Virus record (IMG/VR): IMGVR_UViG_3300028048_000083
Coordinates: 1-59,363 of that record
DNA: 59,363 nt
Source of the DNA: a virus
Taxonomy: Duplodnaviria; Heunggongvirae; Uroviricota; Caudoviricetes
Direction: 5' to 3' (one strand)
Part shown: piece by piece, positions 21,667-53,462 of the stretch
Numbering within the stretch: the stretch's first letter is position 1
Layout of the letters: each line of letters opens with the position of its first letter
Notes under the pieces: generated by a model
What the model saw: the letters and a program-made list of their open reading frames with translations, nothing else
What the model was told of the DNA's origin: nothing
The model's database searches: none
Made by a program: the position numbers and the translations under genes

Positions 21667-21745
21667 AAAAATAATTAGGTTTGATTTGCGGAAAAATGCT
21701 GTAGTTTTCGGTTATATTGTTGAAATTTTTATAAAAACCAATTTT

Positions 21746-23149
21746 ATGACTCAAGAGAAATTCAAACAAATCATTTCATTTATAGGTAATTGCATTAAGG
21801 GAAGCGATTTTGAAAACCATGTATTTGCCGTCGGAGGATGTGTACGTGATAGCTACATGGGCAATGAAATCAAGGATATTGACTTATGTATTGATTTGCC
21901 AGATGGTGGCATAAAACTGGCTGAATTTCTTCATACAAAAAAGTTTCTCACCCGTCCCCCTGTAGTCTACCCTACTTATGGAACCGCAATGTTCAAGTTC
22001 AAGAAATTCAACCAGGATGAAATCGAGTGTGTCCATACTCGTGGAGAACAGTATCACGACAAGAACAGCCGTAATCCTGAGACTTGCTTTGCCACCATCC
22101 AGGATGACTGCGTCCGTCGTGACCTTACAATCAACGCTCTTTACATGAACGTCACCAGTGGTGAAGTTCTTGACCTGACTGGCAAAGGGCTTGACGATAT
22201 TAAAAATCACGTTTGCCGTGTAACCAACGAAAATCCTGATATTGTATTCAATGATGACCCTCTTCGTATACTTCGCGTTATTCGTTTCGCGTGCCGATAC
22301 AACTTTGACATCGAGGAAAACACTTGTGCTTCGATGATGAAGAATGTTGACCGATTGGAAATCATCACTCAGGAACGAATTACCGATGAGTTCAACAAAA
22401 TGCTTATGACAGATGAGCCAGCTCGTGCAATGGCTCTTATAAGACATATAAAAGCCATGAAGTATATCATTCCTGAGCTTATCGAAACATATGATATGGA
22501 GCAAAATGCATATCATTGTGCCAGTGTCTGGGACCATACAATGAGTCTTATGTGTAGTGAAGAATCGAACTATCAACCATATCTTCCCACAAGACTTGCC
22601 TGTGTTCTGCATGACATTGGTAAAATTAGAACCAAAACCGTTGGTGCTGATGGACGCATTCATTTCTACGACCATGAAACCGTTGGCGCTGATATGGTTC
22701 GCGATATTATGCATAGAATGCGTTATTCTAACGACATTACCGAGGAGGTGTGTTTCTATATCAGAAACCATATGATTACCAAGGGTTGGGGTGATGACCT
22801 TAGCCATATGAAAATGAAGTCTCTTCGTAAACTCATGTACAAGGCTAAGACTGAGGAGCGTTTCAACCACCTTATTGAAGTGATTAATTGCGATAACTGT
22901 AGCCACAAAAAGGAGCATTGTATGTGGAACCAGGGTGAAAATATCCTAAAAGTCGCTGCCAACGAAAAGAGAATGTTTGGTTATCAGCTTCCTATTAACG
23001 GAAATGAGGTTATGGAAGTACTTGGTATTGAGCCAGGTCCTAAGGTTAAGAAGTATCTTGACCATTGCATGAAACTTGCTTTCAATAATCCAGACATCAC
23101 CAAAGAAGATTGTATTAAGGAAATTAAACATTTTAAGATTAACGAATAA
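21746..23149 (+). CDS. cca: CCA-adding tRNA nucleotidyltransferase with HD domain
   Basis: AVGGCVRD...DIDL, RRDLTINAL, DDPLRILRVIRFA, LHDIGK, HETVGA; ATG at 21746. Confidence 0.92.
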   Translation: MTQEKFKQIISFIGNCIKGSDFENHVFAVGGCVRDSYMGNEIKDIDLCIDLPDGGIKLAEFLHTKKFLTRPPVVYPTYGTAMFKFKKFNQDEIECVHTRGEQYHDKNSRNPETCFATIQDDCVRRDLTINALYMNVTSGEVLDLTGKGLDDIKNHVCRVTNENPDIVFNDDPLRILRVIRFACRYNFDIEENTCASMMKNVDRLEIITQERITDEFNKMLMTDEPARAMALIRHIKAMKYIIPELIETYDMEQNAYHCASVWDHTMSLMCSEESNYQPYLPTRLACVLHDIGKIRTKTVGADGRIHFYDHETVGADMVRDIMHRMRYSNDITEEVCFYIRNHMITKGWGDDLSHMKMKSLRKLMYKAKTEERFNHLIEVINCDNCSHKKEHCMWNQGENILKVAANEKRMFGYQLPINGNEVMEVLGIEPGPKVKKYLDHCMKLAFNNPDITKEDCIKEIKHFKINE

Positions 23150-36577: not shown

Positions 36578-38659
36578 ATGAAACTACTTTCTGAAGACAT
36601 AAGTGAATATGTTGACGGTATCAACAGTCTCGATGATTTATATAATCGTTCTGGTAGCCAATATCTTTATCATAGAACGCCTGGTGACCTTAATAACATA
36701 CGTGATACAGGATTATCAAGAGAATTTAAAAATGTACAGTCTTATGGATATGGATTATATACTTCATTAAGACTGGAGGATTGTATCAATAATAGGGCAT
36801 ATGGTCCTAAAATTATTAAAGTATGGGTTCCTGGATTTGGCAGATGTATTATTGATAGAGGATGCCGTGTTTATGGACATGATTTGGCTGAAATGATACA
36901 TGGACGCAATGCTTCAGTAGGAGACCAGATTAGAAAATTGTTTAAGCCAGAATACGCAGCTAAATTAAGTCACATTAATTCTGTTAGAGGTTCAGTTTTG
37001 ACCAGTCGAGATATTGAACCAATACTTCAAGAGAATGACATTGACGGTGTTATCTACGATTGGGGTGGCGGACACTGGGTATGTGTGTGGAAAGACTATA
37101 AAAAGGCTTTCCCTATGGAAGTAAGTTTGGATGACGGCAGACATTTCAAACCACTAGGTAATGAAACAACCATTAAAAATGTTTTGAACACTTGGGAACC
37201 TAACAGAATTCTTGGTACCGATATCAACAACTACCAAAACAGCGAGATGGCAAGAGTTCAAAACGGTTATATGGCTTTATCCCGCAAAAGCGACGGAAGA
37301 TACAATTATTTTAATCCAGAAACAGGCAAAAAACCATTATCTTCCGTTTGGTTTGATATTGCCAGCCCAGCTGACGAAAACGGCGTAGGTGTGGTTAAAT
37401 TTAACGGTCAGAATTTCTGGTATTACATACCAGAAGACGAAATATATGAAATAACTGGTGACGATACCGAGGAAGCCCTGATGATGGACGACCCAATCGG
37501 ACATTCTGCGGATTTGCCAAAATTGGTTATGGAAGATGTTAAACCAGTTTTTGGTGATTTATTAACTGAGGCATTGGATGAATATGTACCTAATGTTAGC
37601 CGAGATAGTTTGGATAACAGAAATGGTGATTTGACATATTTTTATAGATTAAGCTTACCAAAACAAATAGAAAGCATTGCCGCAAACGGTTTCAGTAAGG
37701 AATTCAGAGGAAGCGGTAATGATAACAGTGACTTTTTGGGTTCTGGTACTTATGGTGTTGTATTCCCATCAAATGGTGTACACCCTAATTACGGAAATAT
37801 ATTGTGGAAATATGCTACGCCAACGGAATTGGTTAGAAATACATATATTTCACCAGACCCATATCTGGCAAAGAAATTTGGTATTAAAGGTAGTTTTGCG
37901 GAACAATTGAAAAGATTTTTCCCAGACTTATATCCAAAATGGGAATCAAGTGGCATGTTAAGAAGGATTTTGGCACCAACATATTCGGGAAGTGCTATGA
38001 TTAGACAACTTAATGATATAGCTTTTAACGGTACAGGCGGTAAATCAGATTATGCCTATCATTCACACGGAATCAATGGTATTATATATAACGGTAAAAT
38101 TGACCATAACGCCGTTATAACATTTGATGACAGTACGCTTATCCCAGTTTCCTGGAAGGATAATGCCAAGCCACATGATAACTGGCATCCAGTTGAAATT
38201 ACAGATACATTATGGAATAGAACTTTCAACGGATACGACCCATTGCCATTTTTGAAAGGCACATATAAAGATTACACCGATAACCCTAATGAGATATCCC
38301 AAAAATATAGGGTAATTAACGGTTATATGCTTGTTTGCAGAAAAAAAGACCATAAATACAACTACATAAAAGCACCTGAAGGCGGTAGAAACTTTGCGTC
38401 GTCTGTTTGGTTTGATTTAGCTAGCCCTATTGATGAAAATGGTATGGGTACAGTTAAAATTAATGGTCAGAAATTTTGGTATTATGCCCCAGAAGATGAA
38501 ATCTACGAAATAGACGGCAGTGATACCGAGGAAGCGCTGATGATGAACGACCCGATAGGGCATTCAAAAGACCTTCTGATGCTGACATCCAGACCAGCAA
38601 TGGAAGAAAGCAAGCCAGTTTTTGGCGCACTACTTGAAGATATTTTGAAAAAACAATGA
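36578..38659 (+). CDS. internally duplicated protein: 2 x [ADP-ribosyltransferase-like domain + beta-repeat domain]
   Basis: YLYHRT...GYGLYTS...YG and YFYRLS...GSGTYG...YG; near-identical SVWFD.ASP.DENG.G.VK.NGQ.FWYY...DTEEALMM.DPIGHS tails. Confidence 0.55.
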   Translation: MKLLSEDISEYVDGINSLDDLYNRSGSQYLYHRTPGDLNNIRDTGLSREFKNVQSYGYGLYTSLRLEDCINNRAYGPKIIKVWVPGFGRCIIDRGCRVYGHDLAEMIHGRNASVGDQIRKLFKPEYAAKLSHINSVRGSVLTSRDIEPILQENDIDGVIYDWGGGHWVCVWKDYKKAFPMEVSLDDGRHFKPLGNETTIKNVLNTWEPNRILGTDINNYQNSEMARVQNGYMALSRKSDGRYNYFNPETGKKPLSSVWFDIASPADENGVGVVKFNGQNFWYYIPEDEIYEITGDDTEEALMMDDPIGHSADLPKLVMEDVKPVFGDLLTEALDEYVPNVSRDSLDNRNGDLTYFYRLSLPKQIESIAANGFSKEFRGSGNDNSDFLGSGTYGVVFPSNGVHPNYGNILWKYATPTELVRNTYISPDPYLAKKFGIKGSFAEQLKRFFPDLYPKWESSGMLRRILAPTYSGSAMIRQLNDIAFNGTGGKSDYAYHSHGINGIIYNGKIDHNAVITFDDSTLIPVSWKDNAKPHDNWHPVEITDTLWNRTFNGYDPLPFLKGTYKDYTDNPNEISQKYRVINGYMLVCRKKDHKYNYIKAPEGGRNFASSVWFDLASPIDENGMGTVKINGQKFWYYAPEDEIYEIDGSDTEEALMMNDPIGHSKDLLMLTSRPAMEESKPVFGALLEDILKKQ

Positions 38660-43428: not shown

Positions 43429-43485
43429 CAAGTTTTAGTTCGAAATTTGTTTTTCCGACTATTTATAATTAAATTAAGTTTAATT

Positions 43486-44139
43486 ATGGATAGTATAATA
43501 AAAGAACAAATTTTAAATTGTAAAAGTTATGCAGAAGCGATTCGTATATTGTATGGTAAAAATTATACAAATGGAAAATTGCAAGAAAAAGTTAGACAAG
43601 ATTGTTTAAATAATGGTATCGATTTTCAATCTGTTTTAGAAAAAAATAATACAAAACATTGTTTAAATTGTGGGAAAATTCTTGAATTAAAATCGCAATC
43701 CAAATTCTGTTCATCTTCATGCGCAGCTAAAATCAATAATACAAAACGCAAAAAAGAGAAGTATTGTATTAATTGTGGAACACAGATAGATAATAACCAA
43801 AAATTTTGTTCAAATAAATGTCAATGTGAGTTTAAAGCTAAAGAAATTACAAATCAATGGCTAAATAATGAACATAGTGGATGCGATAAAAATGGTGAAT
43901 TAAGTGAATTCGTTAGAAGGTATGTTTTAGAATTACATGAACATAAATGTGATGTGTGTGGTTTTAATGAAAAAAACCCATTTAGTGGTAATGAAATATT
44001 AGAAATACATCATATTGATGGTGATTGTTTTAATAATAACTTATCAAATTTACAAGTTCTTTGTCCAACACATCACGCAATGACATATAATTATGGTCGT
44101 AGAAATTACAATTGCACTAGAAAACGTTATAAAAAATAG
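43486..44139 (+). CDS. HNH endonuclease with Zn-finger repeats
   Basis: LEIHHIDGD..NN..SNLQVLCPTHHA; ATG at 43486. Confidence 0.9.
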   Translation: MDSIIKEQILNCKSYAEAIRILYGKNYTNGKLQEKVRQDCLNNGIDFQSVLEKNNTKHCLNCGKILELKSQSKFCSSSCAAKINNTKRKKEKYCINCGTQIDNNQKFCSNKCQCEFKAKEITNQWLNNEHSGCDKNGELSEFVRRYVLELHEHKCDVCGFNEKNPFSGNEILEIHHIDGDCFNNNLSNLQVLCPTHHAMTYNYGRRNYNCTRKRYKK

Positions 44140-44192: not shown

Positions 44193-44585
44193 ATGAAGTT
44201 AATAAGTGTTATTTTGTTGTTATGGGAATTACCCCAAATTTTGTTGGGCAGGATGTTATCCAGAAAAACTGGCAGGTATGCTCATACGGTCGACGGTGTC
44301 CGTATTTATGTAACTGACAAGTTTGACGGAATGTCATTGGGCGACACAGTGTTTGTTAACCCAAATGCAAGTGAAGGAACGTGGCTAGTCAAACATGAGT
44401 TTGGTCATGTGAAACAAAGCCGATATCTTGGGTGGCTGTATTTGCCGTTGATTTTCGTGCCGTCATATGTTTGGAACAAATTCATTTCGTTTGTTGATGG
44501 TCTGAATGTCATGGAAGACTGGCGTTTAACTTATGTTTATCATCAGTTTTACACGGAATGGTGGGCAAACTGGCTTATAGCTTAG
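44193..44585 (+). CDS. putative Zn-metallopeptidase-like membrane protein
   Basis: HEFGH (HExxH) motif; hydrophobic segments; TEWWAN. Confidence 0.7.
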   Translation: MKLISVILLLWELPQILLGRMLSRKTGRYAHTVDGVRIYVTDKFDGMSLGDTVFVNPNASEGTWLVKHEFGHVKQSRYLGWLYLPLIFVPSYVWNKFISFVDGLNVMEDWRLTYVYHQFYTEWWANWLIA

Positions 44586-44591
44586 TATAAT

Positions 44592-44787: not shown

Positions 44788-44858
44788 AATGCTTTGGTGT
44801 AACGGCAGCACGTCCGTCGTGGAGACGGAAGGTCTGGGTTCGAATCCCAGTAGTGTTC
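44788..44858 (+). tRNA. His-like tRNA with aberrant anticodon loop (CGTGGAG)
   Basis: D and T arms normal; C73; GTG off-register and no U33. Confidence 0.55.
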
Positions 44859-44860
44859 AA

Positions 44861-45125
44861 AGTGACGGTTGTTGATAGTCATTCGAATGTATGTAAGACT
44901 TCGGTTCGAATCCGAACAGGTCCACGATGTTACCGATATTAAAAAGGGGCATGAAGGTCGCGGTCACCTTAAGACCGTATTTGGGCTTGACTTGGTTTTG
45001 ATTGCATATTAGTAGGGTGGAAGTAGACTGTTACTGAAGTTGTTTAAACGGCAACACAAACTATTCTTATCGCATGGCTGCCTAAGTTGGGCACCCACAG
45101 CGGGGCTGGCAACGAGCCAAATCGT
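44861..45125 (+). ncRNA. ssrA: circularly permuted (two-piece) tmRNA
   Basis: Acceptor piece 44861-44924 (T arm + CAGGTCC-A) precedes coding piece from 44983 (GGGCTTG...GGTTTTGA). G3.U70 present. Tag GNTNYSYRMAA* at 45050-45085. Confidence 0.88.
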
Positions 45126-45334
45126 TGCTTTATTTTGAAAACTTGACAGTCCCCCACACATACATTAAAATTGACAGTGCAGGCTCAGACCGTTTGTGTG
45201 TTATACAGACGTGGCTGACCAATGACCATTGCCTTGTATGACCAGGTGGGAACGATGCGCCAGACTATAGTGGTACATCGTTGAAGCGGGCACACCAGCG
45301 TGGAAGCAAGAGCTTTTCTGGTGTTTTCTTTTTT

Positions 45335-46085: not shown

Positions 46086-46931
46086 ATGAATAGGATTGAT
46101 ATTAGCACGGAAGAAAAAAAACAAGAAGTTTATGATTTATTCAAAAATTTCAAGAATAAGTCACAAATACATGTGTATTATGGAATAAGTGACAATTCGC
46201 AAGGTTGTCAGTATATAAAAGAGGTTGCTGATGAGATTGGTTTTGATTTAAGTTCATATAAAAAGAAAGAAACAAGATATTGTTTGGAGTGTGGTGCTGA
46301 GTTAAAAAAAGGCCAAACCAAGTTTTGTTGCAAATCATGTGCGGTTGCTTATAATAATAGACAGCGTGATAAATCGGTATATGAAAAAGTTGCATCAAAA
46401 TTAAGGAAAAACCAAAAACATAATAAGAAAGAGGATAAATATTGTGTTGTTTGTGGTAAACCGTTAATTGGTAGACAACACAAATTTTGTTCTAAAAGCT
46501 GTAGAAATAAATATTATTATTCAAACAATGGATATGAAGTAGTATGTGTTGAATGCGGTAAAATATTTAAAGCCACTGATTCTGAAAGAAGGTTTTGTTC
46601 AAATTCGTGTTGTACGAAGTATAAACAGGAAAAACTTATAGAGGAATGGTTGAAAGGAAATTTAGAAATAAACGGAAACTCTGGATTATGTGATAGTATA
46701 AGAAAATTCCTTTTTGATAAAACAAAATATAAATGTCAAAAGTGTGGTTTTGAAGGATATAATGAAGTAACTGGTAATACAATATTGCAAATTCATCATA
46801 AAGATGGTGATTGTAATAATAACACACCAGAAAATTTAGAAGTTTTATGTCCAAATTGTCATGCTATGACTGAAAACTATATGGGATTAAATCGTGGAAA
46901 GTCAACAAGAATTAAAAGATATTATAAATAG
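46086..46931 (+). CDS. HNH endonuclease with IDISTEEK module and Zn-finger repeats
   Basis: LQIHHKDGD..NN...NLEVLCPNCHA. Confidence 0.9.
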   Translation: MNRIDISTEEKKQEVYDLFKNFKNKSQIHVYYGISDNSQGCQYIKEVADEIGFDLSSYKKKETRYCLECGAELKKGQTKFCCKSCAVAYNNRQRDKSVYEKVASKLRKNQKHNKKEDKYCVVCGKPLIGRQHKFCSKSCRNKYYYSNNGYEVVCVECGKIFKATDSERRFCSNSCCTKYKQEKLIEEWLKGNLEINGNSGLCDSIRKFLFDKTKYKCQKCGFEGYNEVTGNTILQIHHKDGDCNNNTPENLEVLCPNCHAMTENYMGLNRGKSTRIKRYYK

Positions 46932-47112: not shown

Positions 47113-47249
47113 AGGAGTGTAGTTTAACGGTAGAATGACGGTCTCCGTACAGGGTGGCTCCTGAGAGAGGCTTAAATCAACGAATATTGTTTAGAGATAG
47201 ACAATATTTGACAAAACCGTAGATGTTGGTTCGATTCCAGCCACTCCTG
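47113..47249 (+). tRNA. tRNA-Trp(CCA) with 66-nt insertion in the anticodon
   Basis: ACGGT-CTCC[insert 47147-47212]AAA-ACCGT; G73. Confidence 0.82.
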
Positions 47250-47386: not shown

Positions 47387-47509
47387 TGGGAAGTCGTCTA
47401 GTGGTAGGACGCGGATAAATGGTGACTTTTGGTTATGAAAGTCGGACAGCAATTGATTCTATACATGCTTTGGGTGCCCGTTACGCTGGTTCGAATCCAG
47501 CCTTCCCAG
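47387..47509 (+). tRNA. tRNA-Pro(TGG) with 52-nt insertion at 29/30
   Basis: CGG[47415-47466]GC-TTTGGGT-GCCCG; removal gives a perfect 5-bp stem. Confidence 0.85.
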
Positions 47510-47921: not shown

Positions 47922-48027
47922 GATTCCTTAGCTCAGTGGTTAGAGCGTCGCACGTAAAGGTTAACATGACAGAAGCGTGCGGTAATAGTCGGTTTTAGAG
48001 ACGCTGGTTCGAATCCAGCAGGAATCA
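47922..48027 (+). tRNA. tRNA-like gene with enlarged anticodon loop and variable region, anticodon unassigned
   Basis: Perfect acceptor, D and T arms; TCGCACG/CGTGCGG stem. Confidence 0.6.
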
Positions 48028-50063: not shown

Positions 50064-50191
50064 GGACAGGTAGCTCAGTTGGTTTAGAGCGACGTAATGA
50101 ATGACTTTTGGCGATTGAAAGTCGTACAGCAATTAATAAAATTCTATGGTCACCAACCCGTAGGTCGGAGGTTCGAATCCTTCCCTGCCCT
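50064..50191 (+). tRNA. tRNA-Gly(ACC) with 53-nt insertion at 29/30
   Basis: ACG[50095-50147]GG-TCACCAA-CCCGT; U73; atypical C33. Confidence 0.75.
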
Positions 50192-53166: not shown

Positions 53167-53239
53167 GCGCCCGTGGCTGAGTGACTTAGGCGACCGTCTC
53201 TAAAACGGTACTACACGGGTTTGAATCCTGTCGGGCGCA
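53167..53239 (+). tRNA. amber suppressor tRNA (CTA)
   Basis: ACCGT-CTCTAAA-ACGGT; complete cloverleaf; T loop TTTGAAT. Confidence 0.9.
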
Positions 53240-53462
53240 CAAAGAGGTTGGAGGTTAACATTTACGCCATACCAGCTGTCAGTGCCGTTTGAGCCTAGAG
53301 CAGCGAATTTTTAGGCGAAAATGCAAATGACTTTTGATTAAGCGGTGACGAGCCAAACTGGTCATTAGCCAGATTGCCTCTGGCAAAAGCCAGATGTCCG
53401 TGAAAGTCGGAGGAGAGTCTTCCAGTGTATCGTGTTCTACTCCTTAAACAAGTAACAAGTAC

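Follow-up and report, generated by a model that had tools for sequence, protein, structure and literature searches.

Among the rare rearrangements of RNA genes, permutation of tmRNA is a textbook case; it has so far been attributed to three lineages of bacteria and to some mitochondria. The two-piece tmRNAs of Alphaproteobacteria, some Betaproteobacteria and Cyanobacteria are covered by one merged Rfam model, RF04321 (PMC11915505). Of 133 unique phage tmRNAs in one survey, 53 were two-piece, most of them from aquatic phages (PMC9004378), a count that does not agree with the rarity outside bacterial lineages and mitochondria which a preliminary description of the locus analysed here had assumed. 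Methylophilales phage Melnitz and the pelagimyophages, lytic-type phages, possess a complete permuted ssrA beside tRNA genes; their tmRNAs are of the alpha type and agree with, or go back to, alphaproteobacterial hosts, and Melnitz carries a glutamine riboswitch and no reported SmpB (PMC9004378). Equally, the presence of tmRNA and SmpB in huge phages has been recognized (PMC7162821), and a tmRNA database from 2025 contains 48 permuted instances in Bacteroidota bins, which have been left uncommented (PMC11915505).

A complete permuted ssrA beside tRNA genes, as in Melnitz and the pelagimyophages, is also present in the window, the whole stretch of 59,363 nucleotides that was analysed, which sits in a 123,363-bp virus record with a CheckV completeness estimate of 32%. 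In contrast to those aquatic systems, the window phage is of a gut/rumen Bacteroidota type and possesses SmpB. Most likely, the gene is a working ssrA in circularly permuted form that belongs to an uncultured rumen megaphage.

Two detectors, the use of which had been proposed in the preliminary description, call a permuted tmRNA at this locus. ARAGORN independently reports a permuted tmRNA with the tag GNTNYSYRMAA in the window, and RF04321 (tmRNA_permuted) is matched over the whole model (positions 1-213) with 63.7 bits against a gathering score of 47 (E 5e-10). The tRNA-like 3' half (to 44924) is located upstream, followed by a 58-nt spacer and subsequently by the 5' half (from 44983); if the two pieces are rejoined in silico, ARAGORN recognizes a standard tmRNA of 216 nt with the same tag. 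In the tRNA-Ala-like domain, G3.U70 lies within the 7 bp of the acceptor stem, the loop of the T arm is of the GTTCGAATC type and the discriminator base is A. The tag frame opens with the resume codon, which a single-stranded leader precedes, and it reaches an in-frame stop behind a C-terminal Ala-Ala. The 14-nt leader is the sole gap between the outer P2 helix and the resume codon. Upon re-reading, the fully paired acceptor stem with G3.U70 and A73, the P2a pairing, the length of the spacer and the tag frame were all found as first described (Table 1), and the circularly permuted two-piece tmRNA in a phage is thereby confirmed.

Table 1. Features of the permuted tmRNA locus and of associated genes in the window
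Feature	Position	Strand	Remarks
CCA-adding-type nucleotidyltransferase	21686..23149	+	PF01743, 88 bits
Sigma-70-like promoter match TGGGCA-18-TATAAT	44562..44591	+	immediately ahead of tRNA-Gln; the unit ending with the tmRNA may start here
tRNA-Pro(TGG)	44788..44858	+	ARAGORN, Rfam tRNA; ends 3 nt ahead of acceptor piece
Acceptor piece	44861..44924	+	~64 nt before CCA addition; helices kept with compensatory changes in 7 phage genes
P2 3' strands in acceptor piece	44861-44870 (outer helix), 44879-44882 (middle), 44889-44896 (P2a)	+	
T arm TTCGG/TTCGAAT/CCGAA	44900-44916	+	sequence reading
Acceptor 3' strand CAGGTCC	44917-44923	+	discriminator A at 44924
Intervening segment	44925..44982	+	58 nt; small hairpin CGGTC/GACCG inside
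Coding piece	44983..45128	+	~146 nt; ARAGORN, Rfam alignment, RNAalifold
Acceptor 5' strand GGGCTTG	44983-44989	+	pairs 7/7, including G3.U70 and U5.G68 wobble
Loop ACTTGGTTTTGA in place of D arm	44990-45001	+	
P2a 5' strand TTGCATAT	45002-45009	+	pairs with GTATGTAA (44889-44896)
P2 5' strands in coding piece	45002-45009, 45017-45020, 45026-45035	+	
Tag frame GNTNYSYRMAA	45050..45085	+	resume codon GGC at 45050, stop TAA 45083-45085; ARAGORN
Helix 5	45075..45097 (45075-45083 with 45089-45097)	+	tag end TGGCTGCCT pairs with GGGCACCCA; RNAalifold and pair counts
H-type pseudoknot	45104..45128	+	S1 GGCT 45104-45107/AGCC 45115-45118; S2 GCAACG 45109-45114/CGTTGC 45123-45128
T-run TTTATTTT	45129..45136	+	after S2 hairpin; intrinsic-terminator-like 3' end of coding piece

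A conventional 3' end downstream of the coding piece is absent, as had been claimed: ARAGORN finds no standard-form tmRNA in the window, and a search of the whole 123,363-bp record for the standard one-piece tmRNA (RF00023) gave two weak matches of ~20-25 bits, both of which coincide with tRNA genes. Equally, the gene stays below the gathering scores of the models for alpha-, beta- and cyanobacterial tmRNAs (RF01849, RF01850 and RF01851; 50, 84 and 70 bits, respectively), with the best match, to the cyanobacterial model, at 34.9 bits. Control phage tmRNAs in the same run scored 96-143 bits on beta_tmRNA or 88.7 bits on alpha_tmRNA, such that the aquatic-type phage genes of the control set reach the beta or alpha cut-off whereas the window gene is below both.

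The permuted order is not an assembly artefact, because contigs from four independent metatranscriptome libraries of three studies run across the spacer (44925-44982), and an artefact in this segment, which the preliminary description had named as grounds for its own dismissal, is thus excluded. The same gene order is furthermore found in other IMG/VR records. Contigs end near 45135-45152 in two runs, a weak signal from a type of data, assembled contigs, in which RNA ends and processing are not visible.

Conservation among relatives provides the major evidence for the RNA structure. Relatives were identified by an IMG/VR pattern scan combined with ARAGORN, followed by an RF04321 search of SmpB-bearing huge viral contigs. 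The closest, a 245-kb rumen viral contig (G035), possesses a near-identical tmRNA gene with the identical tag GNTNYSYRMAA; its T arm is compensated with respect to the window (TTCGG/CCGAA in the window versus GGCGG/CCGCC), as is the 3' hairpin, and the spacer is unrelated. The tag GNTNYRYAMAA occurs in a complete 373-kb genome (G011) and in two further contigs (G029 and G030), and the RF04321 search added another permuted relative (G006) and two more distant ones (G007 and G005). RNAalifold with seven megaphage genes predicts 51 pairs, 32 of which have changes on both sides. They build the acceptor stem, the T arm, P2a, a short middle helix and a 10-bp outer helix (44861-44870/45026-45035), besides two hairpins, one where the tag ends and one on the 3' side. 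G3.U70 is invariant across the seven genes, and the tag frame with its resume context and stop is kept in the megaphage relatives. The fold of the single sequence, on the other hand, is not significantly more stable than that of shuffled sequence (z = -1.27).

Two H-type pseudoknots had been proposed downstream of the tag. One of them is supported, with a different first stem; the other, a CCC/GGG stem, is replaced by helix 5, in the GGGCACCCA strand of which the CCC at 45094-45096 is located. In this helix, the usual helix 5 of tmRNAs, the stem is closed by a U.G pair formed with the first base of the stop codon UAA, and the two A's lie in the loop. The originally proposed stems CCC/GGG and GGC(45108)/GCC were rejected, as they are broken in three of five sequences of relatives. 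In the supported pseudoknot, changes on both sides are observed at two pairs of S1 and three pairs of S2, with 95% and 100% of the cells paired, respectively; S1 reads AACT and AGTT in G011, G030 and G006 (in the latter AGTC, with the fourth pair lost), such that two of the four pairs in this stem differ on both sides, and the geometry is that of a classic H-type pseudoknot. Pseudoknot 1 is absent from the rejoined window RNA, and pseudoknots 1 to 4 are missing from a total of ~216 nt. The predicted RNA is thus a minimal tmRNA, in which a single small pseudoknot at the 3' side is present and pseudoknot 1 is not.

The spacer ranges from 58 to 116 nt across the relatives and is not conserved in sequence in the closest one. 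The window and the 373-kb genome share a small spacer hairpin (CGGTC/GACCG versus CGGCC/GGTCG). The ~115-nt spacers of G030 (L221:1560-1690) and G006 (L223), both on the minus strand, are conserved with each other and contain the hairpins GTGCCCAGGGCAC and GCATTGCAG..TGATGC.

The genes around the tmRNA are all tRNAs on the same strand, and the neighbouring tRNA-Pro is also present in the closest relative. In two relatives (G011 and G030) a tRNA follows directly after the same 3' hairpin, in place of the T-run. The promoter upstream of tRNA-Gln is a consensus match of a kind no commoner in this region than in shuffled sequence, and promoters of Bacteroidota or phages may differ from this consensus. 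Right after the terminator-like end of the tmRNA another near-consensus promoter, TTGACA-17-TAAAAT (11/12), for the next unit is seen in the window at 45143-45334, a segment of which ~160 nt up to tRNA-Leu (45335) are without ORF or known RNA match and the start is conserved in the closest relative. A dedicated SmpB gene is located on the same phage record ~47 kb downstream (G000:91557-91982; 147 aa, PF01668 with 158.8 bits) and provides the partner that a tmRNA requires.

The protein genes indicate the likely host. A single SmpB protein as query recovered no relatives from IMG/VR, whereas an alignment of homologues found them. The closest relatives of SmpB share 60-97% identity, some of them on contigs of up to ~400 kb, while the nearest named sequences are from Bacteroidota with ~50-54%; equally, the best 80 SmpB matches in bacterial genomes are nearly all Bacteroidota. 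The DnaK-like protein has ~60% identity to huge phages of the Al-Shayeb study and ~50% to Prevotella Lak phages. Together, SmpB and the DnaK-like gene tie the phage to Bacteroidota and to Lak-type megaphages, in agreement with the Bacteroidota-type phage proposed at the outset. DNA runs that contain the stretch come from bovine, sheep and other gut metagenomes. The host can reasonably be taken to belong to the Bacteroidota, probably the Bacteroidales. In GenBank, by comparison, blastn of the tmRNA gene against 50,697 phage records gave no match, nor did the 693-aa ORF at 36578-38659 match in the GenBank phage records.

Bacteroidota hosts had been stated to possess one-piece tmRNAs, which holds for the genomes sampled: a standard tmRNA was detected in 26 of 30 (114-167 bits) and a permuted one in none of 36. 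Host tags follow G[EN]xNYA[LM]AA, and the phage tag, as first noticed, differs from the host type G[EN]xNYALAA in ending on RMAA and not ALAA. The lack of an encoded CCA, on the other hand, had been read as consistent with the phage CCA enzyme. In the window CGA follows the discriminator A at 44924, and CCA is not encoded by the tmRNA gene; however, the sampled Bacteroidota tmRNA genes are equally without CCA, and the missing CCA is therefore a trait common to phage and hosts. The phage CCA-adding-type enzyme could supply the CCA, and so could the host enzyme. One Bacteroides tmRNA has the exact GGGCTTG/CAGGTCC acceptor stem, no CCA and a tag that, like the phage tag, starts with GN.NY. A one-piece host-type tmRNA in a rumen Bacteroidales bin (yak omasum; L346:1501-1897) has the tag GNYNYSYAC, which ends in Cys and not in Ala-Ala, and the middle of which, NYSY, resembles that of the phage tag.

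How does the gene compare with described tmRNAs? Statements about lineage-specific features rest on the Rfam models and on PMC11915505. With the alpha-, beta- and cyanobacterial two-piece tmRNAs it shares the order of acceptor piece, spacer and coding piece, the joining of the pieces by acceptor stem and P2, G3.U70 and the Ala-Ala tag end. Unlike these, it has a glycine and not an alanine resume codon, no encoded CCA, no pseudoknot 1 and a length of ~216 nt, and it sits in a phage for which the likely hosts possess the one-piece form. Nearer in probable host range are the crAss-like phage cr273_1 (NC_055904, Suoliviridae) and Chryseobacterium phage MA9V-3 (PV245944), which infect Bacteroidota or are placed in a Bacteroidota-infecting group. 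Their genes, annotated in GenBank as 'tmRNA', are permuted according to ARAGORN, and permuted genes thus go under the plain label 'tmRNA' in public records. Their tags, GNINVVDYTGLQEAA and GNVIDINKYVAKLEVAA, start with glycine as in the window and otherwise differ, and the two phages belong to other groups than the window phage, with genomes of roughly 100 kb. MA9V-3 passes RF04321 only (64.7 bits), whereas cr273_1 reaches no tmRNA model cut-off; related IMG/VR genes on two complete ~100-kb genomes (G036 and G037) pass RF04321 with 60.5 and 49.4 bits, and SmpB was not found in these two genomes. No paper that discusses the permuted form of the cr273_1 or MA9V-3 tmRNAs was found, nor one that describes a lineage of two-piece tmRNAs in Bacteroidota phages. 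Phage contigs with permuted genes may account for some of the 'permuted' tmRNAs reported from Bacteroidota genome bins.

One-piece tmRNAs occur in the Lak-type megaphages, namely Prevotella phage Lak-B5 (MK250024) and the IMG/VR records G018 and G026, with the tags DDEIEFRMAA, DDEIDFRMAA and DDTTTYRMAA, respectively, and the tag ending (F/Y)RMAA is common to these and to the window. The Lak-type and host one-piece genes are colinear, 354-410 nt long and aligned by RF00023 over the whole 374-position model, whereas the window gene is permuted and ~140-190 nt shorter. RF04321 found nothing in Lak-B5 and four huge phages of the Al-Shayeb study, in which a standard tmRNA or weak matches only were detected, and in no phage record searched did a standard tmRNA occur together with a permuted one at scores beyond the Rfam cut-offs.

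The origin of the permutation can be read in more than one way. The compact Bacteroidota-phage tmRNA fits none of the three described two-piece lineages, and its predicted traits, the glycine resume codon, the Bacteroides-like acceptor stem and the lack of an encoded CCA, are of the Bacteroidota type. The one-piece tmRNA of G026 resembles that of the window in all three segments compared (27/33 on the P2a and T-arm side, 16/18 in the 5' domain and 19/20 at the tag end). The chances that the megaphage lineage derives from one-piece Lak-type or host tmRNAs and not from alpha-, beta- or cyanobacterial ones are about even; the likeness of the tag to those of the hosts could be convergent. More specifically, and tentatively, with somewhat less than an even chance, a separate minimal two-piece lineage may have become permuted in formerly one-piece megaphages, where SmpB and the non-host ending RMAA would establish a phage-ruled protein quality control. 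Alternatively, the permuted gene may have been acquired by horizontal transfer from an alpha-type or another phage-borne permuted lineage and subsequently adapted to Bacteroidota hosts, a course of events that likewise has somewhat less than an even chance. An alpha-type permuted phage tmRNA (L371; 88.7 bits on alpha_tmRNA) has its leader, the tag end TATGCAATGGCTGCCT and, in helix 5, the strand GGCACCC in common with the window, and in leader, tag end and helix 5 the window is closer to it than to any one-piece tmRNA (43 versus 35), in a comparison of short segments where scores beyond the immediate clade are near background. This helix-5 motif recurs among other permuted phage tmRNAs from the environment, and similar 5' domains in the permuted tmRNAs of unrelated phages, of roughly 100 kb and megaphages, suggest transfer of the gene from phage to phage. 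In its tRNA-like parts, however, L371 does not match the window (scores of 14 and 15, the background level), the scores on the alpha, beta and cyanobacterial models are all below the gathering scores, the glycine resume codon and the CCA-less, Bacteroides-like acceptor stem fit Bacteroidota, and the one-piece tmRNA of G026 matches in all three segments.

The SmpB tree leaves both courses of events with some room. Permuted-bearing phages are located in one weakly supported half, alongside some standard-bearing phages, and the number of events is not fixed by the tree: four changes of form are needed, only two of which are forced by well-supported branches, and the window SmpB is on a long branch. 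The independent permutation claimed in the preliminary description is plausible in view of the failure of the lineage models, the glycine resume codon, the RMAA ending and the likeness to G026, while the SmpB tree and the mosaic similarity provide no proof. A further phage-borne lineage, in viruses of hosts that all retain the one-piece form, would be a natural experiment on the minimal tmRNA of ~216 nt with one small pseudoknot and no pseudoknot 1, and the rearrangement would be traceable through one-piece and two-piece forms in related genomes. A testable link between the phage takeover of translation by tRNA arrays, SmpB and CCA enzyme and the rescue of ribosomes would equally be provided.

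A sequence of steps can be proposed for a working two-piece tmRNA. The tmRNA would be transcribed at the end of a tRNA-Gln/tRNA-Pro unit, and 3' maturation of tRNA-Pro would leave the acceptor piece with its 5' end near 44861; 3'-end processing and CCA addition at A44924 would complete this piece. RNase P would cut before G44983, with the 58-nt spacer discarded. The resulting pieces (~64 nt plus CCA and ~146 nt) would be held together by the 7-bp acceptor stem and ~22 bp of P2, a pairing that is shown by covariation. By the identity rule of AlaRS, G3.U70, together with A73, alanine charging would be expected. Phage SmpB and host EF-Tu would then deliver the tmRNA to ribosomes stalled on broken mRNAs, where translation would resume at GGC 45050 and add (A)GNTNYSYRMAA until UAA is reached; the tag-derived peptide expected on a rescued protein is AGNTNYSYRMAA. 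Processing, charging and tagging are in this way deduced from the features of the gene.

Active tmRNAs do not usually lack pseudoknot 1. Its absence would also be in line with an RNA that serves mainly as a decoy or modulator, not for ordinary rescue followed by degradation, and that soaks up host SmpB, EF-Tu or AlaRS, or adds a tag unread by host proteases. A precedent is the tmRNA of mycobacteriophage DS6A, which is cited in PMC11915505 as having no tag frame and as inhibiting the host tmRNA when expressed in E. coli, and the ending RMAA, common to Lak-type phages and different from the host ALAA, suggests a phage-specific selection on the tag. Such a role is nevertheless unlikely for the window RNA, in which the tag frame is intact, with resume context and stop kept in the megaphage relatives, the terminal Ala-Ala is retained and the phage brings its own SmpB, as fits a working rescue system. 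Even less can be said for a one-piece gene rearranged by accident or in decay, and without function, a reading that has a very slim chance indeed: the unremarkable stability of the fold against shuffled sequence and the shortness of an RNA without pseudoknots 1 to 4 would be in line with decay, whereas the compensatory changes in 32 of 51 pairs over seven genomes, the conserved tag frame, the co-occurrence of SmpB in the record and the separate occurrence of standard and permuted genes in the searched phage records speak against it. A functional permuted tmRNA thus remains the preferred reading of the locus.

The tRNA array in which the tmRNA gene is embedded displays additional features. Two ORFs within the array (window 43447-44139 and 46086-46931) code for zinc-ribbon (DUF2116-type) and HNH endonuclease domains and resemble homing-type nucleases. 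Rfam tRNA matches of 106-137 nt at window positions 47113-47249, 47387-47509, 47922-48027 and 50064-50191 are far longer than a tRNA, so that insertions are present in several of the array's tRNA genes. A tRNA with the anticodon CTA, an amber suppressor labelled 'Pyl' by ARAGORN, is located at window 53167-53240. In the window no signal of TAG recoding was detected, with TAG as a sense codon barely lengthening ORFs and eight of 65 long ORFs ending on TAG; any recoding would therefore act elsewhere in the genome. A tie between the suppressor tRNA and a need for rescue is speculative.

A tRNA can even be found inside a permuted gene. In an IMG/VR contig (3300029319_000114; L376:3480-3844, minus strand) with a permuted phage tmRNA and the tag GEQVEMAMAA, the spacer reads by eye as a complete tRNA gene, such that processing enzymes would cut both ends of a real tRNA nested in the tmRNA gene.
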